From a candidate division FCPU426 bacterium (GTDB taxonomy: Bacteria; Oederibacteriota; PGYV01; Palsa-1178): a stretch of 64,000 bases of DNA. Made by a program: the position numbers and the translations under genes. The notes beneath the pieces were generated by a model that did not search any database, was not told the origin of the DNA, and saw only the letters and a list, made by a program, of their open reading frames with translations. The stretch is taken from the NCBI GenBank assembly GCA_003159495.1, contig PLPI01000055.1, positions 3,275 to 67,274 of the forward strand, given 5' to 3'. Position 1 is the first letter of the stretch, and each line of letters starts with the position of its first letter. Positions 4,577 to 39,562 of the stretch are shown here, one piece after another.

Positions 4577-5686
4577 TTAAAGCCCGCCGGACTCCAGGGA
4601 TTTCAGGTTTTTCTTTATTTCGTCCTCGAGCGCCTTTGGCAGGCCGAATATTTTCACATCCATAAAGCCGCTGACTATGGCGGAAATGGCGTCCGCTTTC
4701 GGGATGCCGCGCGACATCAGGTACAGTATCTGTTCCTCGTCGATTTTTCCTATGGCGGCCTCGTGCGACATGTTCACGTCGGCAAATTTTGTGGTGAGTT
4801 CCGGCACCGCGGAAATCAGCCCTGTGTCTTTGAGCATCAGGCCGTCGCATTCAAGATGGGCGAATATCTTCGGGGAATTTCCCTCAAGCTTGCCGCGGGC
4901 CATTATGCTGCCGCCGTTTGAAATGGAACGGCTTATTATTTCGGCGCGGGTATTCTCGGCATTGAGCATCACGCGCGAGCCCAGGTCATATACCGAGCCT
5001 TCCGGAGCCAGCACCAGCGTGTTAAACTTGGCAATGGCCCCTTTCCCGGCAAGATCCGCTGCCGGGTACATCTGGGTGAGTTTTGTCTCGCGCAGGGCAA
5101 TATAATTTGATATGTAAACCCCGCCTTCCTCAACCCTTATTGCCGAACGGGGCCTGACCTCGACGTTTTTGGCCCAGTCGTGTATCATGGTGTACATAAG
5201 CGAAGCGTTCTTTCCAACGAACATTTCAGTTACGCCTATGTGCATGCCCTCGGCAAGATAACTGGCCGCGGCGCAGCCGTTTATTATATGAAGGGAAGAA
5301 CCTTCCTCGAGTATTATAAGGTTGTGGACCTTCTGCTTGAATTTGTCCTGTTTGACAAAAAAGCATGCCTGGAACGGCATGTAAGCCTTTACCCCGGCTT
5401 TTACCCTTATGAAATATCCGGACTGCGTATCTTCGAAGGCAGCGGCGGTGTATTCGTCCTTGTCCTTTTGTACCAGTGTCCAGAGTTTTGCCTTATATTC
5501 GGGATATTTTGCGGCGGCGTCCTTTATGGACATCATTTCAACGCCTTCCTGCCTCATGGAAACGTGGGTTACGCCTCCGTTTTCCATAACGAACGAGCCG
5601 TTCCTGTCCTTTTCGTCAAGGTTAATCCCCGACCTTTCTATTTTTTCCCGGTCTTTTTCATCGATTTTTATCATATGTCCTTGCAT
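4577..5686 (-). CDS. sufD: Fe-S cluster assembly protein, SufB/SufD family
   Basis: 369 aa, lying immediately downstream of and overlapping sufC; the SufBD-like beta-helix family is judged by eye from the translation. Confidence 0.75.
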   Translation of the reverse strand: MQGHMIKIDEKDREKIERSGINLDEKDRNGSFVMENGGVTHVSMRQEGVEMMSIKDAAAKYPEYKAKLWTLVQKDKDEYTAAAFEDTQSGYFIRVKAGVKAYMPFQACFFVKQDKFKQKVHNLIILEEGSSLHIINGCAAASYLAEGMHIGVTEMFVGKNASLMYTMIHDWAKNVEVRPRSAIRVEEGGVYISNYIALRETKLTQMYPAADLAGKGAIAKFNTLVLAPEGSVYDLGSRVMLNAENTRAEIISRSISNGGSIMARGKLEGNSPKIFAHLECDGLMLKDTGLISAVPELTTKFADVNMSHEAAIGKIDEEQILYLMSRGIPKADAISAIVSGFMDVKIFGLPKALEDEIKKNLKSLESGGL

Positions 5687-6408
5687 ACGTCACACTCCCT
5701 GAACCCGTTTTTTTGTATGCCTTCAAAAAGCGTCCTTGCGTCATGCCTGCATTTAATGCGCCCTTCAAGAAGGGTATAACCCGCGTCGGCGTCCACAAAA
5801 TCCATTATATATCCGGTGTGTGTGATTATCAGGGCGCTTTTTGTGCGGTGCCTGGGCTCAAGGTCGCGGCCGAGAAGGGTGCGTATTTTTCCGCCTATGA
5901 GCTTCATGTTTTCGATATCAACGCCCGATTCAGGCTCGTCAAGCATTAAGAATCCGGGTTTTTGCGCAAAAAGCTGGAGCAGTTCGGAACGTTTTATCTC
6001 TCCGCCGGAAAAACCGCTGTTGATGTCGCGGTCCATTAAATATTCGATATTGAGCGCCTTCGCCGCGACGGCCAGGTCGAGTTTAAGGCCGCTTTTTGAA
6101 AGTATTATCGAGGCCATTTCCGAAAGTTTTATGCCCTTTAGTGAAGGCGGCCGCTGGAAAAAAAGGCCGACTCCCAATTTGGCACGCTCATCAATTGGCA
6201 TTCCGTTTAATTCAATTGAATTATATTTTATTGTTCCGCGGGTTATTTTGTACTGTGGATAACCCATTATGGTCATTAAAAGGGATGTTTTTCCGGAACC
6301 GTTCGGGCCGAACAGTATATGGGTTTCACCGTCGGGAATAAGAAGGTCTATACCCTTTAAAACTTCACTGCCTGAAATCTCAACGTGTAAATCTTTTATT
6401 TCAAGCAT
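5671..6408 (-). CDS. sufC: Fe-S cluster assembly ATPase SufC
   Basis: Walker A GPNGSGKTS, ABC signature LSGGE, and a SufC-typical N-terminus MLEIKDLHVEI. Confidence 0.9.
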   Translation of the reverse strand: MLEIKDLHVEISGSEVLKGIDLLIPDGETHILFGPNGSGKTSLLMTIMGYPQYKITRGTIKYNSIELNGMPIDERAKLGVGLFFQRPPSLKGIKLSEMASIILSKSGLKLDLAVAAKALNIEYLMDRDINSGFSGGEIKRSELLQLFAQKPGFLMLDEPESGVDIENMKLIGGKIRTLLGRDLEPRHRTKSALIITHTGYIMDFVDADAGYTLLEGRIKCRHDARTLFEGIQKNGFRECDVCKDI

Positions 6409-6642
6409 AACGCCTCCATGATGATTTTATTATCAACAGCATATCACAAAATATTTTTTTTGTAAGGAATTAATTGTATTTCATGGCGTGTAACAAAGTA
6501 AGCGGAACCCCGGGTCATAAAAAAACATTTGTTCCGCAAAGCGGGACAACCTGACGGGAATAACTTTCATATAGACTGGATTAATTTCCTTAGAACACGG
6601 GAAATTTAAAAAAATACCCTTAAAAATATGGCGGTTACCATA

Positions 6643-6659
6643 CGGCATGGTATGTGCTT
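6643..6659 (+). promoter_or_regulatory. Candidate sigma-54 (-24/-12) promoter for the flgB operon
   Basis: Sequence CGGCAT-ggtat-GTGCTT with exact GG-N10-GC spacing, 39 nt upstream of the first ORF. It shares the motif with the sites at 25051 and 34394. Confidence 0.35.
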
Positions 6660-6695
6660 TATATGTATCGTTGTATTAAATAGCGGAGGTGAAAA

Positions 6696-7151
6696 ATGGA
6701 AGGCATGACGGAGCAAAAGGTAAACACCATGATAAGTAAATATTCCATGGAGATTCATTTTTATGAGTCCCTTATGAAGAAACTCGACGAGGAAATGAGG
6801 CTGTTAAAGGAAGGCGGGCAGATTGAAAAGACAATGGCCGTGCTTGCCGAGAAATCAGTAATAATTTCCAACCTTGACTCCATTGAAAGGCAGATAAAAC
6901 CCCTGAAAGCCGAATACCTGAGCGCCAAGGAAAAAACGGGTTTTTGTTCAAGGGACCTGGATAAACTTTTAATGAAGCTTTCATTCCTGCTCGAAGAGCT
7001 CATAAGCATACAGTCGCGCAATGCCGAACTGCTCCAGAAGAATATGGATTATACGAGGGTAAAGATAAATAACGTAAAAAAACGGGTCATGCTCGTTAAT
7101 ACATACAAACACACAAAAAGCGAAGGGCTTTTTCTACAGGAGGACAGGTAA
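6696..7151 (+). CDS. Hypothetical coiled-coil protein, first gene of the flagellar operon
   Basis: 151 aa, helical and charged; it sits directly before flgB and could be a flagellar chaperone or accessory protein. Confidence 0.45.
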   Translation: MEGMTEQKVNTMISKYSMEIHFYESLMKKLDEEMRLLKEGGQIEKTMAVLAEKSVIISNLDSIERQIKPLKAEYLSAKEKTGFCSRDLDKLLMKLSFLLEELISIQSRNAELLQKNMDYTRVKINNVKKRVMLVNTYKHTKSEGLFLQEDR

Positions 7152-7152
7152 A

Positions 7153-7482
7153 ATGGAAGCTGTTGATAAAATACTTTCAAAGGCTCTCGATGTCATCTGG
7201 TCGAAACAGGAGGCGGTGGCCAATAATATAGCTAACGCCGATACTCCGGGATATGTCAGGCAGGATGTTGATTTTCAGTCGGCGATTGACGACATAATGC
7301 AGAATGAGGGCAATACGGACAACTGGACGGCGCCGGAAGCGCTGCCCCAGCCGGGAGTTCCTGTAAAACTGGAAAATGAGACCGCGGAGCTGGATGAGAA
7401 CGTGGAACTTTACGATTCTGTATCAAAGATAACAGCGCTCCGCATGCAGATACTTAATTCTTCTCTGGGCAGTGCGTCATGA
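7153..7482 (+). CDS. flgB: Flagellar basal-body rod protein FlgB
   Basis: ANNIANADTPGY rod-protein N-terminal motif; 109 aa. Confidence 0.9.
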   Translation: MEAVDKILSKALDVIWSKQEAVANNIANADTPGYVRQDVDFQSAIDDIMQNEGNTDNWTAPEALPQPGVPVKLENETAELDENVELYDSVSKITALRMQILNSSLGSAS

Positions 7483-7880
7483 GCGATTTTTTAAAACCCA
7501 TGGAAATATCCCTTACAGGGATGCAGGCGCAGAAAATGAAAATGGAACTGATAGCCTCCAACGTTGCCAACTCGGACACCATCATGACAAAGGACGGCGG
7601 ATTTTACAAAAGGCAGACGCCGGTATTTGAAACGATGGTTGACGACGAGGGAAGGGCCGCGGGGGTTCAGGTCAAGGAAGTTGTCCAGGAACCAAGCGAC
7701 GGCGTCCAGAAATTTGAACCGAACAACCCTTACGCGGACTCCAAAGGGTATGTTAAATATCCCGACATAAGCACTGTGCGCGAAATGACGGATTTGATAT
7801 CGGCACAGCGCGCGTATGAGGCAAATATTGCGGTCGCATCATCGGTAAAAAACATGATTTCCAAAAGCCTTGAGATATGA
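7479..7880 (+). CDS. flgC: Flagellar basal-body rod protein FlgC
   Basis: SLTGMQAQ...ASNVANSDT N-terminal motif and QRAYEANIAV C-terminal motif. Confidence 0.9.
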   Translation: MSDFLKPMEISLTGMQAQKMKMELIASNVANSDTIMTKDGGFYKRQTPVFETMVDDEGRAAGVQVKEVVQEPSDGVQKFEPNNPYADSKGYVKYPDISTVREMTDLISAQRAYEANIAVASSVKNMISKSLEI

Positions 7881-8240: not shown

Positions 8241-9743
8241 ATGCCTATTGAACTGGCCAATTTACTGAACTCGGCAAAAAACTGGTGGAAATCACTTCAG
8301 CCCGGGCAGAAGACGGGGCTTATGATTACCGGGCTTATAGCGGCGCTTTTAGGCGGCGGGATATTTTATTGGGCGGCGACGCCGGAATATAAACCGCTCT
8401 TTACCAATTTAAGCGATACGGATTCCGCCAAGATAGTGAAAAAACTTGAGGACGACAAGGTGCCGTATAAACTCGACAAAAACACGGGCGCCGTTATGGT
8501 GGCCCAGAACATGCTCATGCAGGAAAGGATAAAAATAGCCGGAACAGGCATGTCCATCGGGGGCGGGGTCGGATTCGAACTTTTTGACAAGACAAATTTC
8601 GGCATGAGCGACGAGGAGAGAAAGATAAACTACCAGAGGGCCCTGCAGACGGAACTTGAAAGGACCATAGACAATATTTCCGGGATTGAAAAATCCAGGG
8701 TACACCTGACAATACCCGATGAAAAATTATTCGACGACGAACAGCCGCAGGCAAAGGCATCGGTTTACCTCAAATTAAAGTCCGGCGTGACGCTTGACAA
8801 GGAGCAGATACTCGGCATACAGAACCTGGTTGCAAGCAGCGTAGAAAGGCTCTCAACCGATGGAGTGGCGTTGATATCAACGGACGGAAAAATACTCACA
8901 GAATTCTCAAAAGGCGCCGATTCAGACATCAGCGACAAAAAACTGGAACTCACCAGCCATGTGGAGGACTATTACAGGAATAAAATACAATCTTTTCTGG
9001 ATAATATCCTGGGGTCAGGCAATTCAACGGTGCGTGTGAGCGCGGATCTGCAGTTTGACAAGGTGGAAAAAGCAAGGGAATCACACACACCGCAGCCGCA
9101 GCAGGCCGCGGTGAAATCCGAAGATTCAACATCCGAGGGTGTGGCGCCTTCAAACGCGGCAATGGTCACAACAAATTCCACACTTCCGGCTCCGCCGGTT
9201 GTAAGGCAGAAAAAATCGGTCAATTATGAATTAAACAGTGAGTCGGAAAGAACGGTCGTAACGCCGGGAGATGTCAAGTCCGTAACTGTTGCCGTGGTGC
9301 TTAACGGTAAATATGACCAGAAATATCTGGACTCGCTTAAACAGTCCATAGCGGCCGCAACCGGAATAAACATCAAAAATGGGGATGCCATAGACATTAA
9401 GGCGATGGAATTTAAGGCGTCGATTTCAGACGAGGAGAAGGCAAAAATAGACTCTCTGGCCAGCCGGGACTATTATTTCAGCCTTGTAAAAGACTACCTG
9501 CCGGCTCTGGCCCTGATAATCATAGGCGTCTTTTTCGCGATAAACATGGGAAAAGGGGTGCAGGTACTCTCAAAAGGGATGTTTGTCCCGATGACACATG
9601 ATAATGGCAATGGAAACGGGAATGGCAATGGAAACGGCAACGGGAACGGCCATGGAAAAAATGTGAAACCCGAGGACATACTAAAAATGGCAAGAGAAAA
9701 CCCAAAAGAAGCTGCCAAGGTAATAAAGTCATGGATATCATAA
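8241..9743 (+). CDS. fliF: Flagellar MS-ring protein FliF
   Basis: 500 aa with an N-terminal TM segment, a periplasmic ring region and a C-terminal TM segment; conserved position before fliG. Confidence 0.9.
   Translation: MPIELANLLNSAKNWWKSLQPGQKTGLMITGLIAALLGGGIFYWAATPEYKPLFTNLSDTDSAKIVKKLEDDKVPYKLDKNTGAVMVAQNMLMQERIKIAGTGMSIGGGVGFELFDKTNFGMSDEERKINYQRALQTELERTIDNISGIEKSRVHLTIPDEKLFDDEQPQAKASVYLKLKSGVTLDKEQILGIQNLVASSVERLSTDGVALISTDGKILTEFSKGADSDISDKKLELTSHVEDYYRNKIQSFLDNILGSGNSTVRVSADLQFDKVEKARESHTPQPQQAAVKSEDSTSEGVAPSNAAMVTTNSTLPAPPVVRQKKSVNYELNSESERTVVTPGDVKSVTVAVVLNGKYDQKYLDSLKQSIAAATGINIKNGDAIDIKAMEFKASISDEEKAKIDSLASRDYYFSLVKDYLPALALIIIGVFFAINMGKGVQVLSKGMFVPMTHDNGNGNGNGNGNGNGNGHGKNVKPEDILKMARENPKEAAKVIKSWIS
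9603..9656 (+). repeat. In-frame hexanucleotide (Asn-Gly)n repeat inside fliF
   Basis: aatggc/aacggg units encode NGNGNGNGNGNGNGNGHG in the FliF C-terminal linker. Confidence 0.7.
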
Positions 9744-9759
9744 TAATGGAGACAAGATA

Positions 9760-10761
9760 ATGGCCGCAACAATTGAAAAAGGAAAGGATTTCGCGAAGGT
9801 GGCGAAACTCATAGTTGCGCTCGGCTCCGAGTTTTCGAAGGATATATTAAAATATCTTAACGAGAACGAGGTTAACCGTGTAATAAAGGAAGTCATGGAT
9901 CTCGGTGAAATTTCAATGGAAGAAAGGCTCGCGATCATACGCGATTTTACACTTTCCATGGTGGAGGCGGATGAAAAAAGCTCCGGCGGGTATACTGCGG
10001 CAAAGGAAATACTTTCGAACCTTTATGACACAAAAAAAGCCGATGAGATGATATCTTTTTTAAGGCCGGACGAAGGGCCGTTCAAGTTTATTGAGGAACT
10101 TGAAACCGAGAAAGTATTCGAAGCCATAAAGAACGAACCGGCGCAGATAATCGCGGTTATTGTTACATTCACCTCGGCTGAAAAAGGGGCGGATATACTG
10201 AGTTTTATGACAAAGGAAGTCAGGGCGGATATCGCAAGGCGCATAGGGGACATTGAAAAGGCCGAGCCGGACGCCGAGATGATAAATGAAATAATATCCA
10301 TACTTAAGTCCAAGCTGGTCCAGAAAAAGGAAATCAAGATAAACGGCCTGGAAAAACTCATAAAAATACTGCACGAAGTCGACAAAAAACAGCTCAAGGA
10401 AATACTGGACATACTGGAAAAAGACTCGCCCGAAATGGCCACAATAATCAAAAAGGAACTTTTCAGGTTCGAGGACCTGAAGGCCATCGAGGACAGGTAC
10501 ATGCAGAGGATACTGCGCGAGGTGGAGGGAAAAGAGCTTGTCCTTGCGTTAAAGGGGGTTTCCGAGGAATTAAAGACAAAAATATTCACAAATATGTCGG
10601 AGCGCGGGGCCGAGATGATAAAAGACGACATGGAGGCTACCGGACCGTTAAAAAGGCAGATAGTCGAGGAATCCCAGCAGAAGGTCCTTAACGTTGTTAG
10701 AAAGCTTGAGGCCAGCGGTGAAATAGTGCTGGAAGGGGGCAATCCAGATGTTGTTGTATAG
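9760..10761 (+). CDS. fliG: Flagellar motor switch protein FliG
   Basis: 333 aa; a typical FliG N-terminus and C-terminal torque-helix region. Confidence 0.9.
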   Translation: MAATIEKGKDFAKVAKLIVALGSEFSKDILKYLNENEVNRVIKEVMDLGEISMEERLAIIRDFTLSMVEADEKSSGGYTAAKEILSNLYDTKKADEMISFLRPDEGPFKFIEELETEKVFEAIKNEPAQIIAVIVTFTSAEKGADILSFMTKEVRADIARRIGDIEKAEPDAEMINEIISILKSKLVQKKEIKINGLEKLIKILHEVDKKQLKEILDILEKDSPEMATIIKKELFRFEDLKAIEDRYMQRILREVEGKELVLALKGVSEELKTKIFTNMSERGAEMIKDDMEATGPLKRQIVEESQQKVLNVVRKLEASGEIVLEGGNPDVVV

Positions 10762-12667
10762 GATATTAAAGAATACAAAAAAGCCCCAGGACAGCGCGAT
10801 AATATCGACGGCGTCCGGAATGGGCACGGCGGCGGATGATGCGGCCGCGGCGCAGGTCAGGGGAGAAGAATACTCGCGCGGATATGAGGATGCAAAACAG
10901 GAGTTTGAAAAACTGCTTGTGACGCAGACCCGGGAAGCGCAAATACTGGCGGAAAAAAAAGCAAGGGAGGGTTTTAAGGCCCTGCTTGCGCTTGTTTTGA
11001 AAAAATACGGGGCGCTTGAAGCCGGCCGCCGCTCGGAAAATATGAATGTCATCGCTGCGGTGCTGAAGAACATACTTGCGGATTCAAAAACCGACGAGGC
11101 GTGGATGAAAAGTTCAATCGAGGCGTCAATGGCTAATTTCTCGCAGTATGAAGAGGTTGACATATACCTCAGCGAGGCTGATTTTGACGCGCTTGCTGCA
11201 AGCGGGCTGGCCGTGGAACTTGAAAAATCACGCAAGGGCATCACCATTAAAAAGGACCGTTCGCTTTTGAGGGGAGATTGCATAGTGGAATCCGGCAGCA
11301 GGGCCGTGGACGCGACCATAAATGAAAAGATCAAGAATGCCGTGGAAAAAACAGCAGCGGGAGAGGAAATAAAATCCGATACAAGCCTTGTGACGGTCGA
11401 GGGCGTGGTAAAGGAAATAGTGGGCAATGTAATTGAAGTAGAGGGGCTTGAATGTTCAATTGGCGATATGTGCGACATATTCACAAAAGACAATAAAAAA
11501 AGGATAAAGTCGGAATCCGTCGGATACAGGGACGGAAAAAATCTTTTAATGCCGCTTGATGAAATGCAGGGCGTCGGGCCGAACAGCCGGGTGATTGACC
11601 TTAAACAGCAGTTCGAACTGGGCCTCGGCGGTGATATGCTGGGGCGGGTTCTTGACGGACTCGGCAACCCGATTGACGGCGGGCCGGCGATAAAAATAAC
11701 GGAGAAGCGTTCCATATATGGAAAATCAACAACGCCGTTTGAACGCGACAGGATAAACGAAAGGCTTACGACCGGAATAAAGGCGATTGATTCCATGTTC
11801 ACATGCGGCAAGGGGCAGAGAATGGGCATTTTCTCCGGAAGCGGAGTCGGCAAATCTTCGCTTATGGGCATGATGGCGCGCAATACATCAGCCGAAATTA
11901 TAGTGATCGGACTTATAGGGGAAAGAGGAAGGGAAGTAAAGGATTTTATTGAAAAGGACCTGAAAGAAGAGGGGCTCAAAAGGGCCGTGGTTGTCGCGGC
12001 GACATCGGACAGAAGCGCGCTGGAACGCGTGCACGGAGCCATGGCGGCGACAACAATCGCGGAGTTCTTCAAAGACCGCGGCATGAACGTGCTTTTGATG
12101 ATGGATTCAGTCACGCGTTACGCGACGGCGCTGAGGGAAATAGGGCTTGCCACCGGCGAGCCGCCGTCGACAAAGGGTTACACACCATCTGTTTTTACAA
12201 AACTCCCGAAGCTCCTGGAACGCTCGGGAAATTTTGTGAAGGGCGGGTCAATCACCGCGTTTTACACGGTGCTCGTGGAAGGCGACGACATGAACGAGCC
12301 AATTGCCGATTCAGTGCGCTCAATACTCGACGGACACATAGTGCTCTCCAGGAAACTTGCCACGCGCAACCATTATCCGGCAATCGACGTGACGGCGTCC
12401 ATAAGCAGGCTTATGACCGACATAGTCCCCGAGGCCCAGGTAAAAACAGCCGGAAAGGCAAAGGAAACAGTCTCAATAATGCAGGAGATGGAGGATCTAA
12501 TAAATATAGGCGCCTATAAAAAAGGGGCCAACCCGAAGGTCGACAACGCGCGCCGTATAATCGAACAACTGAACCTGTTCCTTAAACAGGGAATAAATGA
12601 AAAAAGCGACTCGGTAAAGGGGCTGTCAGATCTTGAAAATATATTGAAAATGGAGGCTAAAAAATGA
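10748..12667 (+). CDS. fliI: Fused FliH-FliI (export-ATPase regulator plus ATPase) in one 639-aa ORF
   Basis: Residues ~40-205 carry the FliH C-terminal signature (VDIYLSEADFDAL ... LLRGDCIVESGSRAVDATINEKI). Residues ~210-639 are a FliI ATPase with Walker A GSGVGKS. No stop codon separates the two parts. Confidence 0.85.
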   Translation: MLLYRILKNTKKPQDSAIISTASGMGTAADDAAAAQVRGEEYSRGYEDAKQEFEKLLVTQTREAQILAEKKAREGFKALLALVLKKYGALEAGRRSENMNVIAAVLKNILADSKTDEAWMKSSIEASMANFSQYEEVDIYLSEADFDALAASGLAVELEKSRKGITIKKDRSLLRGDCIVESGSRAVDATINEKIKNAVEKTAAGEEIKSDTSLVTVEGVVKEIVGNVIEVEGLECSIGDMCDIFTKDNKKRIKSESVGYRDGKNLLMPLDEMQGVGPNSRVIDLKQQFELGLGGDMLGRVLDGLGNPIDGGPAIKITEKRSIYGKSTTPFERDRINERLTTGIKAIDSMFTCGKGQRMGIFSGSGVGKSSLMGMMARNTSAEIIVIGLIGERGREVKDFIEKDLKEEGLKRAVVVAATSDRSALERVHGAMAATTIAEFFKDRGMNVLLMMDSVTRYATALREIGLATGEPPSTKGYTPSVFTKLPKLLERSGNFVKGGSITAFYTVLVEGDDMNEPIADSVRSILDGHIVLSRKLATRNHYPAIDVTASISRLMTDIVPEAQVKTAGKAKETVSIMQEMEDLINIGAYKKGANPKVDNARRIIEQLNLFLKQGINEKSDSVKGLSDLENILKMEAKK

Positions 12668-13131
12668 GCGCATTCAAGTACAGGTTTGAAAAAATACTTA
12701 AAAACAAGGAACATAACGAGGATGAGATAAAAAAACAGTGTGATTCGGCAAGGACGCTGATAAGCCTTGAGAAGATCAAACTCAACGTAGCCGCTGAAAA
12801 AGAGATGCTCATGAGGCAGACTATGCTGAAAAATAGTTCATCGGGAAAACGCACCATCCAGGACATGAACGAGATAAAGTCGTTTCACACATACCTGGTT
12901 TACCTTGAAGAATTTATGAAAAGAAAGAAAGAGCAGATAGCCGTACTTGAGGCAAAACTTGAAGGGCTGCACAACGAGCTCACGGCGGCCAGGGTGGAAA
13001 AAATGACATACGAGAAGATACGGGAGAGGGATGAGAAAGTCTTTGGCGACACGGAAAACCGGAATGAGCAGAAGGCTTCGGATGAATACGCGGTATTTAA
13101 ATTCAGGGCGCAGAGCGCGGGATTAAATTAG
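12664..13131 (+). CDS. fliJ: Flagellar export protein FliJ
   Basis: 155-aa coiled-coil protein directly after fliI. Confidence 0.7.
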   Translation: MSAFKYRFEKILKNKEHNEDEIKKQCDSARTLISLEKIKLNVAAEKEMLMRQTMLKNSSSGKRTIQDMNEIKSFHTYLVYLEEFMKRKKEQIAVLEAKLEGLHNELTAARVEKMTYEKIRERDEKVFGDTENRNEQKASDEYAVFKFRAQSAGLN

Positions 13132-19631: not shown

Positions 19632-20020
19632 GAAAAACAGCGGCGGCATTGATGCTTGTCCTTTTGCTTTCGGGGTTCTGCCTTGGAGGCACAACACCCA
19701 CGGCAAAAGACTCCGGTTATGAATACAAAGGGACCGGATACCTGACCGTCGTTTACGCGTTAAAGGTAATTGTAGCGATTTCTATTTTAAGCGGAATCGC
19801 ATACGGCGCTTTAAAATTAATGAAAAAATACAACCTGAATCCCGCAGCGTTCAACGACGAGATAAAACTCAAGGCGGTCAAAACCATACTGGGCGACAAG
19901 AAGGCCGCGATAATTGAGGCACGGGGCAGGGAATACCTCGTGGCCATATCGAGGGATAATATTACCCTCATTGCCGCGCTTGAAGGGGCCCCAAAAACAA
20001 AAAAGGGCGCGTCGAAATGA
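19628..20020 (+). CDS. fliO: Flagellar biosynthesis protein FliO/FliZ-like
   Basis: 130-aa bitopic membrane protein between fliN and fliP. Confidence 0.6.
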   Translation: MRKTAAALMLVLLLSGFCLGGTTPTAKDSGYEYKGTGYLTVVYALKVIVAISILSGIAYGALKLMKKYNLNPAAFNDEIKLKAVKTILGDKKAAIIEARGREYLVAISRDNITLIAALEGAPKTKKGASK

Positions 20021-20814
20021 GACTCAGAATATTGCTCGCGGCCGTGGCAATACTGGCGCTTTTCACACCTGCGTTCGCCTCCGATTCCATAAACCTGAAT
20101 ATAGGCGTCGGGTCGTCCAACGGCGGCGGCATCGTCAATTCGCAGGGCAGTAACGTCTCAATAAACCTGGCTGAGCCGTCCAATGAAAAGGAATTATCAG
20201 GGGCGGTAAAGGCTTTAATAGTCCTGACAGTGCTGTCGCTTGCTCCGGCCATATTTGTGCTGTGCACATCATTTATCAGGATAATAATCGTGCTGTCGAT
20301 ATTAAGGCAGGGCATAGGCCTGCAGACGCTTCCGCCAAACCAGGTGCTGGTTGGTTTCGCCGTCTTTCTTACCATATTTAACATGCTGCCGGTAATTCAG
20401 CAGATAAATGTGAACGCGGTAAAACCATATTACGCCAAACAGATTTCATGGCAGGAGGCGCTCGACAGCGGGACACAGCCGCTCAAAAAATTCATGCTGG
20501 CGCAGACAAGGGACGAAGATCTGTCGGTATTTTTATCCCTGGTAAAGGAAAAACCGAAGTCGAGGAAGGACCTTTCAATATTTGTGGTCATTCCGGCATT
20601 CGTGCTGAGCGAACTTAAAGTCGGGTTCGAAATAGGCTTCATATTATACATACCGTTCCTTGTGGTCGACATGATAGTTGCGTCCATTTTAATGTCCATG
20701 GGCATGATGATGCTTCCGCCTATCATGATATCTCTGCCTTTCAAGATACTGCTTTTTGTGCTAATTGACGGCTGGCGGCTCGTTACAGAGGCGCTTCTTA
20801 AAAGTTTCCATTGA
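20017..20814 (+). CDS. fliP: Flagellar export apparatus protein FliP
   Basis: Signal peptide followed by conserved FliP TM segments (LSLAPAIFVLCTSFIRIIIVLSILRQ). Confidence 0.9.
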   Translation: MRLRILLAAVAILALFTPAFASDSINLNIGVGSSNGGGIVNSQGSNVSINLAEPSNEKELSGAVKALIVLTVLSLAPAIFVLCTSFIRIIIVLSILRQGIGLQTLPPNQVLVGFAVFLTIFNMLPVIQQINVNAVKPYYAKQISWQEALDSGTQPLKKFMLAQTRDEDLSVFLSLVKEKPKSRKDLSIFVVIPAFVLSELKVGFEIGFILYIPFLVVDMIVASILMSMGMMMLPPIMISLPFKILLFVLIDGWRLVTEALLKSFH

Positions 20815-20880: not shown

Positions 20881-22668
20881 ATGTTAAATAAAAAATATTA
20901 CAAAGGCAGCGACCTTTATTCGGACGGAGACGTTGAAAATGATATATTGAAGATTGTAAGGGAAGGTAAGGATCCTGAAAAGGCAATAGCCGAAGACAGC
21001 CGCTGGCCCATACTTTATCATCTTACTTCCACCAGGGAAAATTTGCTTGAATGGATACCTTTTGAAAAGAACGCAAGCCTGCTCGAAATAGGCGCGGGTT
21101 GCGGCGCGCTTACCGGACTGCTGTGCGAGAAACTCGGCAAAGTGACGGCTGTCGAGCTTTCGGCCAGAAGGGCGGAAATAACAAATGAAAGGCTTAAAGA
21201 TAAAAAAAACCTTGAAATATACGCGGGAAACCTGAGCGACATTGAATTCGGGGAAAAGTTCGATTATATAACTCTCATAGGCGTGCTTGAATATGCCGGC
21301 AAGTACAAGAACTCGAAAAACCCGTATATGGATTTTCTTAAGGACGTCAAAAAACTTCTTAAGGATGATGGAACGCTTATTATTGCCATTGAAAATAAAT
21401 TCGGGATGAAGTATTTTTCCGGCGCGCGTGAGGACCACACCGGAGCGGCTTTTGACGGCATACAGGGTTATACGCGCAGTGACGTGAGGACTTTCGGGAA
21501 AAACGAGCTGATCAGCCTTCTTAAAAGTTCGGGTTACGGTGAAAGTCATTTTTATTACCCCATGCCGGATTACAAATTACCGGGCGTGATATTTTCGGAT
21601 TTCCGCCCGCCGAAAATCGGTGAGATAGGCAGGACGTTTTCTAATTTCGACAGGGATAAAGTGTCGGTTTTCAGCGAATGCCTCGGGTTTGAGAACGCGG
21701 TTAACAGCGGCGAATTCGGATTTTTTGCGAATTCATTTCTCGTTTTTTGCGGCAAAAAACCGGCCATTGATTTTGTCAAATACAATAACCTCAGGATGCC
21801 CGCATTCCAGGCAGCGACGGAGATCATGAGCGGCGGGGCGGCCTCGACAAAGAGAAGCTTGCGCGGGGACGGGGAAAAACACATATCGCGCATAGTACAA
21901 AATTTCTCAAAACTCGGGGAAAACCACGGTGATTTTAAAATAGCGGGATGCAGGTTTGAAGCGGGAAAAGCGGTTTTTGAGTACATAGAGGGCAGGTCGC
22001 TGGATGAACTGCTCTATGAAAACGCCGTAAAAAGGGATAAAAACGGTTTTTTCGGACTGCTTGCGGAGTTTAAAAAGAATTTTGATTCGCTGGACAGGTC
22101 GAAAATAAGCAATTTTAAGGCTGACGTCGGTTTTACGGAAATATTCGGGGATACGGCGATAGATTTTGACTTCGATTCCTTCAAGGTATCGGACATAGAC
22201 ATTATATTTGACAATATTATCGTAAAAGACGGCGCACAGGTGTTGATTGACTATGAGTGGGTTTTTGAAACCGTACTGCCGGTAAATTATATTTTGTTCA
22301 GGTCAATATTCACCTTCTGGAACAAATACGTGGAGCATCTGGACGGTTTTGTCACGCCCGAGGAAATATTTAATTTTTTTGGAATAGCCTTTAAAGAGAT
22401 ACCGTTTTACGGGCAGATGGAAAGAAAATTTCAGGCATTTGTCCATGATCAGCCAAGGCTCTCAAATCTGGCGGGTTTTCAGAAAAGAAGGGACGAAATA
22501 AAAATTTACGACATGGTAAAACATTCGGGCTACCTGGAAACGCGCGTGAAGGCGCTTAATATGGAAATGGAAAAGACAAGAAAGCTGATATGTGAAAAAG
22601 AGGATATTATAGAAAAACTCAGGGTAGAGCTTGACGGAATGAAAAAACAGCCGGAAAAGACCGCTTAG
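20881..22668 (+). CDS. Class I SAM-dependent methyltransferase fused to a ~350-aa C-terminal domain of unknown function (possibly kinase-like)
   Basis: Motif I LEIGAGCGALTGLL and post-I VAVELS in residues ~60-220. C-terminal region has a DIIFDN(x16)IDYEW arrangement and a terminal coiled coil. Confidence 0.7.
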   Translation: MLNKKYYKGSDLYSDGDVENDILKIVREGKDPEKAIAEDSRWPILYHLTSTRENLLEWIPFEKNASLLEIGAGCGALTGLLCEKLGKVTAVELSARRAEITNERLKDKKNLEIYAGNLSDIEFGEKFDYITLIGVLEYAGKYKNSKNPYMDFLKDVKKLLKDDGTLIIAIENKFGMKYFSGAREDHTGAAFDGIQGYTRSDVRTFGKNELISLLKSSGYGESHFYYPMPDYKLPGVIFSDFRPPKIGEIGRTFSNFDRDKVSVFSECLGFENAVNSGEFGFFANSFLVFCGKKPAIDFVKYNNLRMPAFQAATEIMSGGAASTKRSLRGDGEKHISRIVQNFSKLGENHGDFKIAGCRFEAGKAVFEYIEGRSLDELLYENAVKRDKNGFFGLLAEFKKNFDSLDRSKISNFKADVGFTEIFGDTAIDFDFDSFKVSDIDIIFDNIIVKDGAQVLIDYEWVFETVLPVNYILFRSIFTFWNKYVEHLDGFVTPEEIFNFFGIAFKEIPFYGQMERKFQAFVHDQPRLSNLAGFQKRRDEIKIYDMVKHSGYLETRVKALNMEMEKTRKLICEKEDIIEKLRVELDGMKKQPEKTA

Positions 22669-22934: not shown

Positions 22935-23158
22935 ATAAGGGAGCGATTGTTTGTAAAATGTGCAAAAGATAATGGCGGAAAGATGTTTTAGTCTGGCGGG
23001 CGGGTCTGCTGGATGACCGATATTTAGAAAAAAATGTAAGGTGTTCGTCTGCGTTGTGGATCTTGGCGTGCATGACCCGGTATTCAAAAAGCCATAACAG
23101 CCAAACTTATGGTATTATAAGCCGTAGTTTTTCGCAATATCAAAAGGTGGCTCTAAAA

Positions 23159-24901
23159 ATGACGATAAGTATTTTTGCGGCAATATCATTTTTCACGGCA
23201 ATAGCAGCTTTTCTAACCGGTATTTATATTTACCGGCAGGATCCCAGAAACCCGATGAACCAGACTTTTATGTACGGTTCGGCCGTTGTTGCATGGTGGG
23301 CCCTGTGCGAATTTCTTTACCGCACGGCGCCGGATGCTGTTTACGCCGCATTCTGGATAAAAATGTGTTTCGTATGGCCGTTCGGGCTCGCGTTCTTCCT
23401 TGACGCGATCATATATTTCCTGGATACGGATGCAAAAATAAAAATGATGCCGCGCATGCTTGCTTTATACGCGCCCGCGGTTGTTATTGCCTTAATACAC
23501 CTTTTTTTTACGGGGCTGTACTTCGGGCCGCCGGTAAAAATGTGGTGGGGATATACGGTATCAAAAGGGCCGCTTCTGGGTGTTATAAATTTTTATTCCA
23601 TCTTACTTTTTGCCGTTTCAGCGGCCTGGCTGCTCGTGTTTGCGTTAAAAACAAAAGACGCTGTAAAAAAGAGGCATGCTTTTGTAATAGCGGCCGGGCT
23701 TTTAACGGCCACCCTTATGGCATTTTCTGTCGGGATACAGGAGATTTTCTTTAACCGGCAGACTCCGGAACTCTCGACGGCGGCGATACTCGCGGGAATA
23801 ATTATAATCGTATTTGGCTCGGTTAAGCACGGGGTTTTCTCGGTAAATGTTAAGAATTCAGCCGGGCACATATTAAACGTAATGAAAGAGGGGTTTGCAC
23901 TTACGACCCCGGATATGCGCATCAAAACTGTAAATGAATTTTTCTGCCTGATGACGGGCTACCTTATGGAAGAAGTGGAAGGCATGAATCTGGGGTCATT
24001 TGCTGGGCTTAATTCCGATGGAAGAGGAGAATTTGAAACCCTGCTGAAAAGAAAAGATGCGGGCCTCATGCCGGTCGGCGCATCGCACACTGTTGTGAGG
24101 GATAATCGCGGCAATATTGCGGGGCATATTTTTGTCTTCGCGGATATTACGGATAAGAAGAAAAAACTTGAAATAGAGGCCGAATACAGGAAATTGATCC
24201 AGGGTGAGGCATCTAAAAATGAGATTATCAACGTTATTGGCCATGAGATGAAAACTCCGCTTACATCAATAAAGGGATTTTCATCGCTTCTGATAAGCGG
24301 GGCCGCGGGACGGTTGAATGAAAACCAGAGGGAATACACGGAGGCAATCAAGGCTAATGCGGACAGGCTGGTCGAAATGACCTCGGATTTTATAGATATA
24401 ATCAGGATATCGTCCGGCAGGATGCCTCTCGTGAAAGAAAAATTCGACATGTCGGCGGTGGTGAATAATGTTTCGGACAAATTTAATTACATTCTTGCGG
24501 GTTCCGGGATAACCGTTACCGCCGGAAAAAAAGCCGTTTGTATGGTATTCGGGGATGAAAAGAGGCTTGAACAGGCCGTTTCAAATATGGTGCTTAACGC
24601 GGTAAAATTTTCGCAAGACGGTGACTGCGTGAAAATTTATTGTTCCGCCGCCGTGGGGACCGCAGCCGCGCAGGTATGGGTGGAGGATACTGGCAGGAAA
24701 TTGTCTCCGCAAGAGGTCAATGAAATATTCGCCGGACTGCTTATAATAAAAAATAATCGTTCCACAAAAAAGAACCACGGGACACCCTTTGCGATGACCA
24801 TTTCCAGGGCCATTGCCGAGTCACACGGAGGCAACCTGGTTTACAGAGATAACGGAACAAAAAAGGGCAACACGTTCGTAATGGAAATACCGCTGAGTTA
24901 A
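23159..24901 (+). CDS. Polytopic membrane sensor histidine kinase (multi-TM, PAS, HisKA, HATPase_c with degenerate G1/G2 boxes)
   Basis: Six to seven predicted TM helices, H-box IGHEMKTPL and N-box NAVKFS. G1 is DTGRK (not DxGxG) and G2 is GTPFAM (not GxGLGL). RBS aaggtgg before ATG 23159; the ORF is open from 23054. Confidence 0.7.
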   Translation: MTISIFAAISFFTAIAAFLTGIYIYRQDPRNPMNQTFMYGSAVVAWWALCEFLYRTAPDAVYAAFWIKMCFVWPFGLAFFLDAIIYFLDTDAKIKMMPRMLALYAPAVVIALIHLFFTGLYFGPPVKMWWGYTVSKGPLLGVINFYSILLFAVSAAWLLVFALKTKDAVKKRHAFVIAAGLLTATLMAFSVGIQEIFFNRQTPELSTAAILAGIIIIVFGSVKHGVFSVNVKNSAGHILNVMKEGFALTTPDMRIKTVNEFFCLMTGYLMEEVEGMNLGSFAGLNSDGRGEFETLLKRKDAGLMPVGASHTVVRDNRGNIAGHIFVFADITDKKKKLEIEAEYRKLIQGEASKNEIINVIGHEMKTPLTSIKGFSSLLISGAAGRLNENQREYTEAIKANADRLVEMTSDFIDIIRISSGRMPLVKEKFDMSAVVNNVSDKFNYILAGSGITVTAGKKAVCMVFGDEKRLEQAVSNMVLNAVKFSQDGDCVKIYCSAAVGTAAAQVWVEDTGRKLSPQEVNEIFAGLLIIKNNRSTKKNHGTPFAMTISRAIAESHGGNLVYRDNGTKKGNTFVMEIPLS

Positions 24902-25114: not shown

Positions 25115-25384
25115 ATGGGAACTGGTGATGTGATGATGATACTGAAAAATGCGGCGGCGGTTACATTTATTACGGTCGCGCCGATAATGGTTATCGGCCT
25201 GGTGCTTGGGCTTTCAATTTCCATTTTTCAGGCGGTGACGTCAATACAGGAAATGACTCTTACGTATGTCCCGAAAATACTCATCTCGCTTTTGTGCATA
25301 ATACTTTTCGGCCCCTGGATGATGCAGATGGTGATTTCATTTTCCACAAATCTGATAAGGTCGATTCCGGACCTTGTAAAGTGA
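25115..25384 (+). CDS. fliQ: Flagellar export apparatus protein FliQ
   Basis: 89 aa with two TM segments; a typical FliQ sequence. Confidence 0.9.
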   Translation: MGTGDVMMILKNAAAVTFITVAPIMVIGLVLGLSISIFQAVTSIQEMTLTYVPKILISLLCIILFGPWMMQMVISFSTNLIRSIPDLVK

Positions 25385-29315: not shown

Positions 29316-29383
29316 TGGGGAGAAAATGATTATCATTAATGCGCCGGTTGTTGGTGAAACAGAAGAAAAACCGAGGAGGAATA

Positions 29384-30796
29384 ATGGACGTAAAAGCGTA
29401 TAAGATCCTGATAATAGACGATGACCCGGAGATAGTCTGGTACATCAGCAGCCTGATGAAAAAATTCGGGTATGAATTTGAAAGCTCTCCGAACGGCGAG
29501 GACGGGCTGGCAAAAATAGATAAAACATCATTTGATCTTGTCATACTTGATATCACCATGCCCGGGTTGTCGGGCGTCGAGGTCATGAAGCGCATGAACG
29601 AGCGGGGGTTTAAGTCGCCGGTAATAATCCTTTCAGCATATGAAAATGTCAATTTTGCGGTCGAGACGACAAAGCTGGGGGCCTATGATTACCTTGTAAA
29701 GCCGGTTGATGAGGAAAAATTAAGGGTGACGGTCCAGAATGCCCTGAAAACAAGGGAACTGGAAACCGAGGTCAAAATACTGCGCAATAAGATAAAGGCC
29801 GACGACCCTGACGGGGAAATAATAACCGGCCATCCGATTTTTATAAAAACAATAGAGACTGCAAAAAAAATATCGGGCTACGAGGTTTCGGTGCTGATCC
29901 TTGGAGAATCGGGGACGGGCAAGGAACTAATAGCAAGGACGATACACCGCAACAGCCAGAGAAAAGACGGCGCCTTTGTTTCCATAGACTGCGCCACGCT
30001 GCCTGACAACCTGGTGGAATCGGAACTCTTCGGACATGAAAAAGGGTCCTTCACCGGGGCCACCGAGGCGAAAACAGGAAGGTTTGAACTGGCCAACGGA
30101 GGATCTCTTTTCCTCGATGAGATAGGGAACCTTTCCCTGAATGTGCAGAAAAAACTTTTAAGGGTGATCCAGGAAAGGAAAATAGTGAGGATAGGCGGCA
30201 AAAAAACCATCGATCTTGATATCCGCATTATAACCGCCACTAATGTGGACCTGGCTGAAGCCGTTAAAAAAGGGGAATTCAGGGATGATCTGTTTCACAG
30301 GATAAACGAGTATTATCTTGAACTGCCGCCGCTAAGGATGAGGGGGGACGACATTCTGCTTTTAGCCGGAAGGTTCATACTGAAATACAACTTAAAATTC
30401 GGCAAAAATGTCAAAGACATTGATGACGAGGTAAAACAAATATTTACGGACTATTCGTGGCCCGGCAATGTAAGGGAGCTTGAAAACACGATAAAGCACG
30501 CTATTTTAATGGCTGATGCTGTTATCACAAAGGCAAACCTCCCCAAAAGCCTTACTGACAGGGTTATGATGGGAGAGGCCGCGGATTATTCCGGGAATCC
30601 GGAGGGCGCGGATGCAGGGACCGACGGAGAAATAATGTCTTTGAAAGACGCCTGCGGCAGGGCCAGGGAACACATAGAAAGGGAAATGATAATGAAGGCC
30701 CTTAAAAAGTTCAAGTGGAACAAAACGAAGGTGGCCGAGGCGCTTAAGGTGGATTACAAGACACTTTACAATAAAATGAAAGAATACGGGCTTTAA
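29384..30796 (+). CDS. Sigma-54-dependent response regulator (REC, AAA+ sigma-54 activator, Fis-type HTH)
   Basis: REC acidic pocket IIDDDPE...LDITMP. Walker A GESGTGKE and a GSFTGA (GAFTGA-type) loop. C-terminal HTH WNKTKVAEALKVDYKTLYNKM. RBS gaggagg. Confidence 0.85.
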   Translation: MDVKAYKILIIDDDPEIVWYISSLMKKFGYEFESSPNGEDGLAKIDKTSFDLVILDITMPGLSGVEVMKRMNERGFKSPVIILSAYENVNFAVETTKLGAYDYLVKPVDEEKLRVTVQNALKTRELETEVKILRNKIKADDPDGEIITGHPIFIKTIETAKKISGYEVSVLILGESGTGKELIARTIHRNSQRKDGAFVSIDCATLPDNLVESELFGHEKGSFTGATEAKTGRFELANGGSLFLDEIGNLSLNVQKKLLRVIQERKIVRIGGKKTIDLDIRIITATNVDLAEAVKKGEFRDDLFHRINEYYLELPPLRMRGDDILLLAGRFILKYNLKFGKNVKDIDDEVKQIFTDYSWPGNVRELENTIKHAILMADAVITKANLPKSLTDRVMMGEAADYSGNPEGADAGTDGEIMSLKDACGRAREHIEREMIMKALKKFKWNKTKVAEALKVDYKTLYNKMKEYGL

Positions 30797-30809
30797 GGAG
30801 GCACAGGAA

Positions 30810-31004
30810 ATGGCATTTATAACATTTTTCGCGCCGCCGGCGGCGTTTTTAGCGTGCGTCATCCTTGGAATACTGTTCCATAAATCGTGGGGAGGGGTGC
30901 TTGCAGGATCGGTAGTATTTTATGCCCTGACTTTTATACTGATGGCTGTGATAAATAAAATAACGGCTGACAGGATGCCTGTAAACAGCGAGGTGGAAAA
31001 ATGA
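30810..31004 (+). CDS. Small two-TM membrane protein of unknown function
   Basis: 64 aa, strong RBS aaggagg, 4-bp overlap with fliA. Confidence 0.4.
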   Translation: MAFITFFAPPAAFLACVILGILFHKSWGGVLAGSVVFYALTFILMAVINKITADRMPVNSEVEK

Positions 31005-31738
31005 ACGACGATGAAAGGATAATGTGGGAAAGGTTCAAACAAACGAAAAGCGCCGCGGCCAGGAACGAAATAGCCAAAAAATATATAAATCTGGTGCGGT
31101 TTGTGGTTGAAAAGGTCTATTTTGCATCCTCGCTGGCCAGCAAAGACGACCTTTTTAACATCGGCGCCATGGGGCTGCTGGAAGCTGTGGAGAAATACGA
31201 CACGGGACGGGATATAAAATTCGTAACATACGCCTATTTCAGGATATACGGCAGTATAATGGACTATTTAAGAAGCGCGGATTGGGCTCCCAGGTCCGTC
31301 AAGGAAAAATCATCAAAACTTGAAAAAGCCTACAGGGCATTAATGGAACGCGGCATTTCAAACCCCACGGACGAGCAGGTCGCCGGGGAGATGAAAATGG
31401 ATATGAACTCATATTACAGGCTTATAGACGGCCTGCATGTCAACAAGGTTTATTCGATAGACGAATTTTTTTCCGCTGACGGCGCGGGCTGCCCGGTATG
31501 TGCCGATGAAAACTCCGGAAACACCGAGCGCAGGGAACTGCTGGCGCGCATAATAGACACGGCCCTTGACAGCAGGGAACAATCGGTGCTGGCGATGTAT
31601 TATTATGAAGGTTTCACCCTCAAGGAAATATCAAAGTCAATGGACCTTACTGAGGCGAGAATCTCCCAGATACACGGGCAGGCCATCTCCAAGATAAAGG
31701 CGCAACTATCCATTGAAAAAGTGCTGAATATATTTTAG
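31001..31738 (+). CDS. fliA: Flagellar sigma factor FliA (sigma-28)
   Basis: Sigma-70 regions 2 and 4: YINLVRFVV..., DLFNIGAMGLLEAVEKYD, LKEISKSMDLTEARISQI. Confidence 0.8.
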   Translation: MNDDERIMWERFKQTKSAAARNEIAKKYINLVRFVVEKVYFASSLASKDDLFNIGAMGLLEAVEKYDTGRDIKFVTYAYFRIYGSIMDYLRSADWAPRSVKEKSSKLEKAYRALMERGISNPTDEQVAGEMKMDMNSYYRLIDGLHVNKVYSIDEFFSADGAGCPVCADENSGNTERRELLARIIDTALDSREQSVLAMYYYEGFTLKEISKSMDLTEARISQIHGQAISKIKAQLSIEKVLNIF

Positions 31739-31815
31739 AATTAGGCAAGTACGGCAGCGTGCCTGACAGGGGGTTTAAAAACGGGGCGGCCGAAAACAGG
31801 CGGGAAAAGGAAAAT

Positions 31816-39040: not shown

Positions 39041-39562
39041 ATGGAAACGACGCCCGCTCCGGAAAGCTGCATAGAGAACGCATACAGGTGTTTTGACGAG
39101 ATAGCCAATCTCTACAAGAAACTCCTTGACTTGTCCATGAAGGAAAAGGAATTGATAATATACGAGGACCTTAAAACCCTGACAACGACGATAATAGAAA
39201 AAGAAGAGCTTATGAACGCCATAAGCGTACAAAAGGACGAGGTTAAGGAACATATGGAAGGCGTGAAGCTGGGATACGGCTACCAGCAGGGCGAACAGGT
39301 GCCTGTGATGAGGCTCATAAAACTTTTTCCCGGGGACTGGACAAACAAATTTGAGATGGTTTTCGCCCGCCTCAGGGAATATACGTCAAGCATAAGGACC
39401 GTTGCAATGGTCAACAAACGGCTTATCGCGGATACGGTAAAGTTCATAAATTATGTGGTAAATTTTATGAAAAAAGGTGACGGGGAAATGACTGTATATT
39501 CCCACAAGGGATTTGCCGTTAAGAAATCGAACGAACTTAATTTTCTTGACGTCCAGCTTTAG
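39041..39562 (+). CDS. flgN: FlgN-like chaperone for FlgK/FlgL
   Basis: 173-aa helical protein between flgM and flgK. Confidence 0.5.
   Translation: METTPAPESCIENAYRCFDEIANLYKKLLDLSMKEKELIIYEDLKTLTTTIIEKEELMNAISVQKDEVKEHMEGVKLGYGYQQGEQVPVMRLIKLFPGDWTNKFEMVFARLREYTSSIRTVAMVNKRLIADTVKFINYVVNFMKKGDGEMTVYSHKGFAVKKSNELNFLDVQL

Follow-up and report, generated by a model that had tools for sequence, protein, structure and literature searches.

A fused fliH–fliI gene in the flagellar cluster of a candidate division FCPU426 bacterium

In current models of flagellar type III export, FliI, FliH and FliJ assemble as FliI6FliH12FliJ at the export gate and soluble FliH2FliI is a dynamic carrier, with the C-terminal region of FliH binding the N-terminal region of FliI and thereby regulating ATPase activity and ring formation (PMC7911332). 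Models of how the ATPase reaches the export gate and is fixed beneath it build on the ratio of two FliH to one FliI, or of SctL2 to SctN in the injectisome. The canonical FliH is a separate polypeptide that binds one FliI as a homodimer, whereas in the gene described here, fliHI, the FliH part is covalently joined to FliI. The gene lies on a 64-kb stretch of DNA (64,000 nt, positions 3,275 to 67,274 of contig PLPI01000055.1, assembly GCA_003159495.1; the window, in what follows) from a candidate division FCPU426 bacterium, and it is probably a genuine, vertically inherited fusion that yields one polypeptide, an export ATPase with its own stalk or tether, for use in flagellar type III export.

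In Salmonella FliH residues 1-18 are an adaptor peptide that binds the FliM–FliN SPOA pair, and the injectisome regulator likewise uses an N-terminal adaptor peptide to bind SPOA domains, those of the sorting platform (PMC4443714). The literature searched describes no natural FliH–FliI fusion. Such proteins already have entries in public databases, but under no other name than 'flagellum-specific ATP synthase', which conceals that a fliH gene is apparently lacking. Neighbouring genes with interacting products commonly fuse in evolution, and neither component is new; what raises this case above a routine fusion is its conflict with the established 2:1 stoichiometry, the apparent loss of a docking segment, and an independent second origin with an intermediate form.

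The fused reading frame and its recurrence

The first-pass annotation of the window had read fliH and fliI as a single open reading frame (ORF) of 639 aa, in which the C-terminal signature of FliH stands in frame with a complete FliI ATPase carrying the Walker A motif GSGVGKS. This is borne out, as no internal stop codon occurs across 10748-12667 on the + strand, the FliH signature LLRGDCIVESGSRAVDATINEKI is found at residues 173-195 and the Walker A motif at residues 364-370 (nt 11837-11857). The gene and its immediate neighbours are as follows.

9760-10761, + strand: fliG, whose stop falls 14 nt inside fliHI
10731-10739, + strand: putative Shine-Dalgarno (SD)-like GGAAGGGGG, recognised by inspection, 8 nt 5' of the fliHI ATG and within the 3' end of fliG
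10748-12667, + strand: fliHI, the FliH–FliI fusion, one ORF of 639 aa with an ATG start and a TGA stop (12665-12667)
12664-13131, + strand: fliJ, whose ATG shares 4 nt (ATGA) with the fliHI stop

The start codon of fliHI is supported by the SD-like GGAAGGGGG and by the N-terminus being kept in all homologues, with M1 and K8 invariant. The overlaps of fliG with fliHI (14 nt) and of fliHI with fliJ (4 nt) indicate translational coupling along fliG–fliHI–fliJ, and the 14-nt overlap of fliG with fliHI is also found in loci L081, L085, L086 and L087. Opposite fliG and fliHI there are two antisense ORFs, of 251 aa (10023-10778, − strand) and 488 aa (10648-12114, − strand); their translations are rich in Ser, Phe and Ile, and they look like mechanical by-products of a purine-rich coding strand, not genes.

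A search of 5.8 billion protein clusters recovered 11 other full-length fused proteins of 636-652 aa (P0002-P0011 and P0080), making 12 clusters with fliHI, so that the same fusion, for which the first-pass annotation had proposed to look in relatives, is found down to 43% identity. Members P0002-P0011 are 54-83% identical to the fliHI protein and span 99-100% of the query, and for nearly all of them the existing annotation already lists Pfam domains of FliH as well as of the ATPase; P0080 is the one that is 43% identical. The matches that rank after the fused proteins are ordinary FliI of 435-440 aa, and a Goldiibacteriota metagenome-assembled genome (MAG) has an ordinary unfused FliI (P0099) that is 59% identical. 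An identical P0002 occurs in four independent assemblies (two JGI metagenomes, one ENA and one Logan), each time between fliG and fliJ, and the 90% cluster of the fliHI protein includes a member seen on 35 contigs. The same fliG–fliHI–fliJ order and the 14-nt fliG overlap are found with P0009, P0011 and P0080, and the alignment of P0002-P0010 has no insertions or deletions at the junction.

When fliHI is compared with P0002 by the method of Nei and Gojobori, the ratio of non-synonymous to synonymous substitution (dN/dS) is 0.17 in the FliH part, 0.12 in the FliH C-domain, 0.18 in the linker and 0.04 in the FliI part. As these low values go with a dS above 1, the fused frame has been held through near-saturating synonymous divergence. 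The PepA encoded in the window has its nearest named relatives in Candidatus Goldbacteria/Goldiibacteriota MAGs (47-54% identity), with one 'Spirochaetia' MAG at 57%. PepA homologues that are 78% and 67% identical apparently share contigs with fused P0003 (81%) and P0005 (67%) respectively, and the pattern suggests that the fusion is inherited vertically. The position of P0080 is less straightforward, with FliI distances of ~0.56-0.59 to fused and unfused proteins alike; it has in common with the clade the ETS-x-V-x2-EG motif at the junction, the overlap of 14 nt with fliG and an upstream GAF-kinase context, and it is probably a deep branch of the fliHI clade with a 10-residue insertion.

The fusion of these two genes has arisen more than once. 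A scan of the 80 best FliI loci, with one genome per GTDB species and the clade of fliHI itself not among them, contained FliH–FliI ORFs of 653-657 aa in four Desulfobacteraceae/Desulfatitalea MAGs.

5512-7482 of locus L023: Desulfobacteraceae FliH–FliI fusion
5521-7488 of locus L025: Desulfobacteraceae FliH–FliI fusion
5509-7482 of locus L026: Desulfobacteraceae FliH–FliI fusion
5281-7242 of locus L049: Desulfobacteraceae FliH–FliI fusion

The FliI parts of these four are closest to one another, and as their next-nearest relatives are those of unfused Desulfosarcina (L011, which is the complete genome of D. variabilis, L068 and L073), the fusion in Desulfobacteraceae is an independent event, the existence of which shows that the fused architecture is viable. 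These fusions resemble fliHI in having FliH and FliI in one ORF with the same Pfam architecture, but differ from its clade in keeping the FliI N-terminal segment, with DARI motif and beta-barrel ~50 aa apart and a match to the FliI N-terminus hidden Markov model (HMM; described below) from position 3-6. In the unfused Desulfosarcina relatives the gap between fliH and fliI is 10-21 nt, and the Desulfobacteraceae fusions look like the plain loss of a fliH stop codon, which may be an earlier stage of the same path. With the helix kept, they provide an evolutionary intermediate for comparison.

The two halves and the junction

The protein can be divided into the following elements, for both the boundaries and folds of which use was made of an AlphaFold2 (AF2) model built from a 52-sequence alignment, with a mean predicted local distance difference test score (pLDDT) of 85.6 and a predicted template modelling score (pTM) of 0.76.

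10748-10777, + strand: residues 1-10, MLLYRILKNT, the conserved N-terminal peptide of FliH and presumably its adaptor to the C-ring (FliM/FliN)
10778-10837, + strand: residues 11-30, variable and poorly conserved spacer, predicted to be disordered (pLDDT below 50 for residues 1-30)
10838-11131, + strand: residues 31-128, FliH stalk, predicted by AF2 as a long helix (31-112) and a short helix (117-128); dN/dS 0.13
11156-11356, + strand: residues 137-203, globular alpha/beta FliH C-terminal domain with its last helix at 191-203 (…DATINEKIKNAVEK), from Pfam, HMM and AF2
11357-11392, + strand: residues 204-215, 12-residue coil linker (TAAGEEIKSDTS region) without a FliI N-terminal helix, from AF2; dN/dS 0.18
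11393-11626, + strand: residues 216-293, FliI N-terminal beta-barrel domain (Pfam ATP-synt_ab_N at 222-285, and AF2), matching FliI in 5B0O and 2DPY
11774-12406, + strand: residues 343-553, RecA-type ATPase domain (Pfam ATP-synt_ab, 306 bits)
Residues 391-396 and 451-454: catalytic-loop GERGRE and Walker B …MMDS
12425-12634, + strand: residues 560-629, C-terminal helical domain of type III secretion system (T3SS) ATPases (Pfam T3SS_ATPase_C)

Both halves score above family thresholds, as the HMM comparison proposed in the first-pass annotation was meant to establish. In the FliH half the Pfam family FliH (PF02108) is matched at residues 74-197 with 35.9 bits against a gathering cut-off of 24.1, covering profile positions 5-127 of 128; the same model gives 65-74 bits in P0080 and the Desulfobacteraceae fusions, and only 21.2 bits, below the cut-off, in P0011. 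A clade profile made from the FliH parts of the fused proteins was used in a HMMER search of 1.84 billion cluster representatives; 8,285 proteins matched it at E ≤ 1e-3, of which 513 reached E ≤ 1e-10. All but one of its best 150 matches are stand-alone proteins of 154-409 aa, the sole fused one being the clade's own representative, and Pfam FliH was found at 68-114 bits in each of the eight stand-alone matches tested. In the reverse direction an HMM of the 149 stand-alone FliH matches the fliHI ORF at E=7e-25.

The N-terminus of the clade, M(S/L)LY(R/K)I(I/L)KN, resembles the MS(S/N/D)(V/I)IK start of many stand-alone FliH, and the pattern [ILVMF][ILV][KR] occurs within the first 10 residues of all 12 fused proteins and of 51 of the 149 stand-alone FliH, against a background of 9%. 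By analogy with Salmonella FliH this peptide may act as the adaptor on FliM/FliN. It is apparent that residues 1-203 keep every recognisable FliH element, namely the N-terminal peptide, the long stalk helix and the C-terminal globular domain.

The FliI half matches TIGR01026 (fliI_yscN, NCBIfam) at residues 208-633 with 589.9 bits against a cut-off of 379.5, starting at model position 14, and the NCBIfam SctN models score below the FliI models on fliHI. Residues G364-S370, E392, D453, R457 and R535, which make up the Walker A, catalytic-loop Glu, Walker B and Arg positions of the RecA-type site, are invariant in the 52-sequence alignment with stand-alone FliI. Foldseek gives target-normalised template modelling (TM) scores of 0.90-0.94 to 5B0O and 2DPY, the best structural match being the FliI of the FliH–FliI complex 5B0O (TM 0.90, 50% identity). 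Judged by these matches the FliI half reads as intact and catalytically complete save for its N-terminal segment.

It is this segment that sets the junction of fliHI apart. The junction was measured as the FliH tail after the motif D-A-(R/T)-(I/L) plus the FliI N-terminus up to the beta-barrel motif G-x-V-x4-G, and it is exactly 31 aa in fliHI and in P0002-P0008, the members measured, whereas in unfused pairs of FliH and FliI (n=51) the median of the same sum is 48, with 37 at the 5th percentile and no pair below 35. The part retained after DATI (NEKIKNAVEK…) fits the pattern of the FliH terminal helix, with Pfam FliH reaching residue 197. The HMM of the FliI N-terminus, built from 58 unfused FliI with the consensus SAAALDLEKYLKALEELELIKVSGKV…, aligns to fliHI only from position 15, and to most members of the clade from 15-20. 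A free FliH-binding N-terminal FliI segment of ~20 aa is thus not found in fliHI, in which positions 1-14 of this HMM have no counterpart. The AF2 model has coil, not helix, at residues 204-215, with block-mean pLDDT of 78-84, and one peptide of the fused protein that spans the junction is SDTSLVTVEGVVK.

Taken together, the short junction, the HMM start at position 15, the TIGR01026 start at position 14 and the coil of the AF2 model indicate that the clade lost a FliI N-terminal segment of ~14 residues, which is amphipathic. In the study of the FliH–FliI complex 5B0O this segment is reportedly a helix that docks on the FliH C-terminal dimer. On the simplest reading of the sequence, the non-covalent tether would have become superfluous once a peptide bond joined the two parts, and would then have been trimmed.

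Proposed working, alternatives and the surrounding cluster

If fliHI works as one polypeptide, its N-terminal peptide would dock on the FliM/FliN C-ring, with the stalk helix bridging to the ATPase, and beneath FlhA the FliI part would assemble into a hexamer with FliJ at its centre, as it does in Salmonella. The canonical FliI N-terminal segment holds FliI non-covalently to the C-terminal domains of the FliH dimer, and in the clade a peptide bond would take the place of this tether. With FliH and FliI made 1:1, a FliI6 ring would carry 6 FliH chains, not 12. Neighbouring protomers might pair these six chains into three stalks, comparable to the three E–G stalks of V-ATPases, or the chains might stay single, and the soluble form would be a monomer or an (FliHI)2 dimer rather than FliH2FliI.

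A fixed 1:1 ratio of FliH to FliI in place of FliH2:FliI may reasonably be expected from the fusion. It is a more tentative proposal, and one to which we give somewhat less than an even chance, that the 1:1 arrangement is obligate, with no free FliH, a docking helix made dispensable by the covalent link and a ring held by half the usual number of FliH chains. Were this so, flagellar type III export would have no universal need of the second FliH of FliH2, nor of the reversible cycle of a cytoplasmic FliH2FliI carrier that depends on it. Such a lineage, with FliH tied to FliI at 1:1 and no docking helix, would be a natural experiment on what is essential, with the second FliH chain, the reversible binding of FliH to FliI and the inhibition of premature hexamerisation by FliH as the features at stake. 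For the design of a single-chain FliH–FliI, the sequence of the junction also indicates to what length the linker can be reduced.

Several points weigh against a functional single-chain fusion of this kind. All members of the fused clade are known from metagenomes alone, and 64 kb of the genome is covered, so that a stand-alone fliH paralogue elsewhere could restore the 2:1 ratio. Heptad analysis of the helix at 31-128 gives peaks at 3.65 and 4.5, not 3.5, so dimerisation of the FliH part is unsupported by sequence alone, and the AF2 model is of a monomer, with the FliH part covered by only 12 sequences. The best-scoring model for the FliI half, TIGR03497 (FliI_clade2), reaches 593.3 bits and is just below its equivalog cut-off of 629.8, a shortfall that is consistent with a divergent lineage and a missing FliI N-terminus. 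The HMM of the FliI N-terminus reaches back to positions 4-6 in P0004 and P0007, which weakens a clean statement that the segment was deleted; we read this extension as a spurious run into the FliH terminal helix.

Adjacent-gene fusions in metagenome assemblies are often artefacts, and a related assembly (L082) has a split fliG directly beside the fusion gene, so it could be supposed that the fused frame is a sequencing or assembly error in which a stop was missed, or a frame shifted, between separate fliH and fliI. The first-pass annotation had itself named such an error as what might undo the fusion, but no missed stop was found and the fusion recurs in independent assemblies: the architecture is present in 12 clusters down to 43% identity, the identical protein was recovered from four assemblies made by different pipelines and the linker is under purifying selection (dN/dS 0.18). 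The junction, being shorter than that of any unfused pair, also could not accommodate the tail of a FliH, an intergenic gap and the N-terminus of a FliI, and the likelihood of an artefact is negligible. No more credible is the idea that residues 1-205 are not FliH, and that FliI is here extended by an unrelated coiled coil. The modest Pfam FliH score of 35.9 bits, and that of P0011, which at 21.2 bits is under the cut-off, could be taken in its favour, and the first-pass annotation had similarly allowed that residues 1-205 might not be FliH-like, but the FliH profile searches match in both directions, the clade profile retrieving thousands of FliH with nothing else at the top and the reverse HMM matching at E=7e-25. 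The interval from fliG to fliI, where fliH has its place in unfused relatives, has no separate fliH, and the predicted fold elements of the N-terminal half match those of FliH.

The two remaining alternatives accept the fused gene. It might be that separate FliH and FliI are nevertheless produced by internal initiation, by programmed frameshifting or termination at the junction, or by proteolysis of the linker, the last of which is not readable from sequence. There are in-frame GTG codons at residues 199, 215 and 220 of fliHI, and an A-rich run GAAAAAAC (~11343-11350) from which the +1 frame stops 8 codons on. However, the junction GTGs have no preceding SD-like sequence, P0011 is without any in-frame start codon in the junction and the A-run is absent in P0002, P0011 and P0009, whilst a FliI freed at the junction would lack its FliH-binding segment, so that the separated proteins would lose their canonical mutual binding. 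A comparison of P0002, P0009, P0011 and P0080 revealed neither an internal start codon nor an SD-like sequence or slippery run that is conserved at the junction, which makes separate translation of the two halves unlikely, and this alternative as a whole is quite improbable. Frameshifting at the A-run and initiation at GTG215 were considered individually and rejected, as neither is conserved in those four proteins. A scan of the window against Rfam gave no match, hence no riboswitch or RNA element near the junction.

It is also unlikely, if a shade less so, that fliHI works with an extra stand-alone FliH encoded elsewhere, with FliH2:FliI kept as a heterodimer of one fused and one free chain. 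Only 64 kb of the genome is visible, and the canonical FliH dimer in 5B0O is said to be asymmetric, which makes a pairing of one tethered with one free FliH chain structurally conceivable. Against this, the flagellar set in the window is whole, running from flgB to fliS, and only fliHI matches FliH HMMs, with no second fliH or fliI among its ORFs (two FliH HMMs were used, and no other ORF was better than E=1), and no fliH was found in the regions that flank the clusters of relatives. The reading of fliHI as one polypeptide that is both export ATPase and stalk is the one we prefer.

The flagellar supercluster in which the gene lies extends from ~6.7 to 46.6 kb of the window, about 40 kb and about 40 genes, and is an essentially complete set. 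The presence of L- and P-ring genes implies a diderm organism. The genes follow one another in this order.

From the start to flbD: flgN-like, flgB, flgC, fliE, fliF, fliG, fliHI, fliJ, fliK, flgD, flgE, flbD
From motA to flhA: motA, motB, fliL, fliM, fliN, fliO, fliP, methyltransferase, histidine kinase, fliQ, fliR, flhB, flhA
After flhA: sigma-54 activator, sigma-28-like factor, hybrid kinase, flgF, flgG, flgA, flgH, flgI
To the end: flgM, flgN, flgK, flgL, fliW, flagellin, fliD, fliS

A number of features of this cluster, and of its surroundings, deserve mention in their own right. The normally contiguous export-gate genes fliPQR are interrupted by two genes inserted between fliP (20017-20814) and fliQ (25115-25384)/fliR, one for a SAM-dependent methyltransferase of 595 aa (20881-22668) and the other for a 7TM-PAS-HisKA histidine kinase of 615 aa (23054-24901). 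FliF has a perfect (Asn-Gly)7 at residues 457-470 (~9609-9650), coded by a hexanucleotide tandem repeat, the length of which could vary, and just before its conserved C-terminal FliG-binding tail. The genes flhF and flhG are not found after flhA (window 29339-34254), their usual place being taken by three genes, for a sigma-54-dependent response regulator (29339-30796), a sigma-28-like factor (31001-31738) and a hybrid response-regulator/histidine kinase of 831 aa (31759-34254). Chaperones of the FlgN family are encoded twice, first at the start of the flgB operon (6696-7151, 36 bits) and again in the usual flgM–flgN–flgK position (39041-39562, 65 bits). Directly after fliS there are ORFs of 120 aa (46749-47111) and 301 aa (47220-48125), the latter without a Pfam match, and these may be lineage-specific flagellar accessory genes. 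Outside the cluster, 54511-56778 encodes a 755-aa protein of unusual architecture, with a T2SSE/PilB-type ATPase domain (residues 4-279) followed by C-terminal TPR. Amongst the related loci, the fliG beside P0002 in L082 (JGI 3300014161, 4822-5822) is split into 239 + 86 aa, a probable frameshift error or pseudogene, and the fliHI gene there is intact.

Comparison with known systems

The closest described system is the FliH2–FliI complex of Salmonella (5B0O) and the FliI6FliH12FliJ assembly of which it is part. The two share with fliHI the same two protein families and the same gene neighbourhood, and the elements of FliH are all present in fliHI. They differ in that the three chains of Salmonella correspond to one polypeptide in fliHI, with a gene dosage of 1:1 rather than 2:1, and in that the FliH-binding N-terminal segment of FliI is missing from fliHI, which has a coil in its place. 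The Trp7/Trp10 clamp of Salmonella FliH (PMC4443714) is absent from the fliHI N-terminal peptide.

The SctL–SctN pairs of injectisomes, such as OrgB–InvC and YscL–YscN, are a homologous stator or regulator with its ATPase; they are separate proteins, in contrast to fliHI, and the fliHI locus is flagellar, with fliF, fliG, fliJ, fliK, flgE and motAB. FliH is regarded as a homologue of the b and delta subunits of rotary ATPases, or of E, and in these enzymes the catalytic subunit is bound by the stalk at its N-terminal crown. Natural fusions in the peripheral stalks of rotary ATPases (F-type b/delta, A/V-type E–G) join stalk subunits to each other, whereas fliHI joins a stalk to a catalytic subunit. 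Natural b–delta fusions are documented (bioRxiv 10.1101/2021.01.01.425057), and the literature searched describes no fusion of stalk and catalytic subunit, be it in a rotary or a T3SS ATPase.

Within the flagellum itself, FliF–FliG fusion proteins that retain function have been used for structural work (PMC11481574), and the FliM–FliN fusion is an engineered construct that also retains function (PMC4443714). These constructs are like fliHI in that adjacent interacting flagellar proteins tolerate a covalent linkage. They are unlike it in that FliF and FliG, and FliM and FliN, are normally partners at ~1:1, whereas FliH and FliI normally come together at 2:1.

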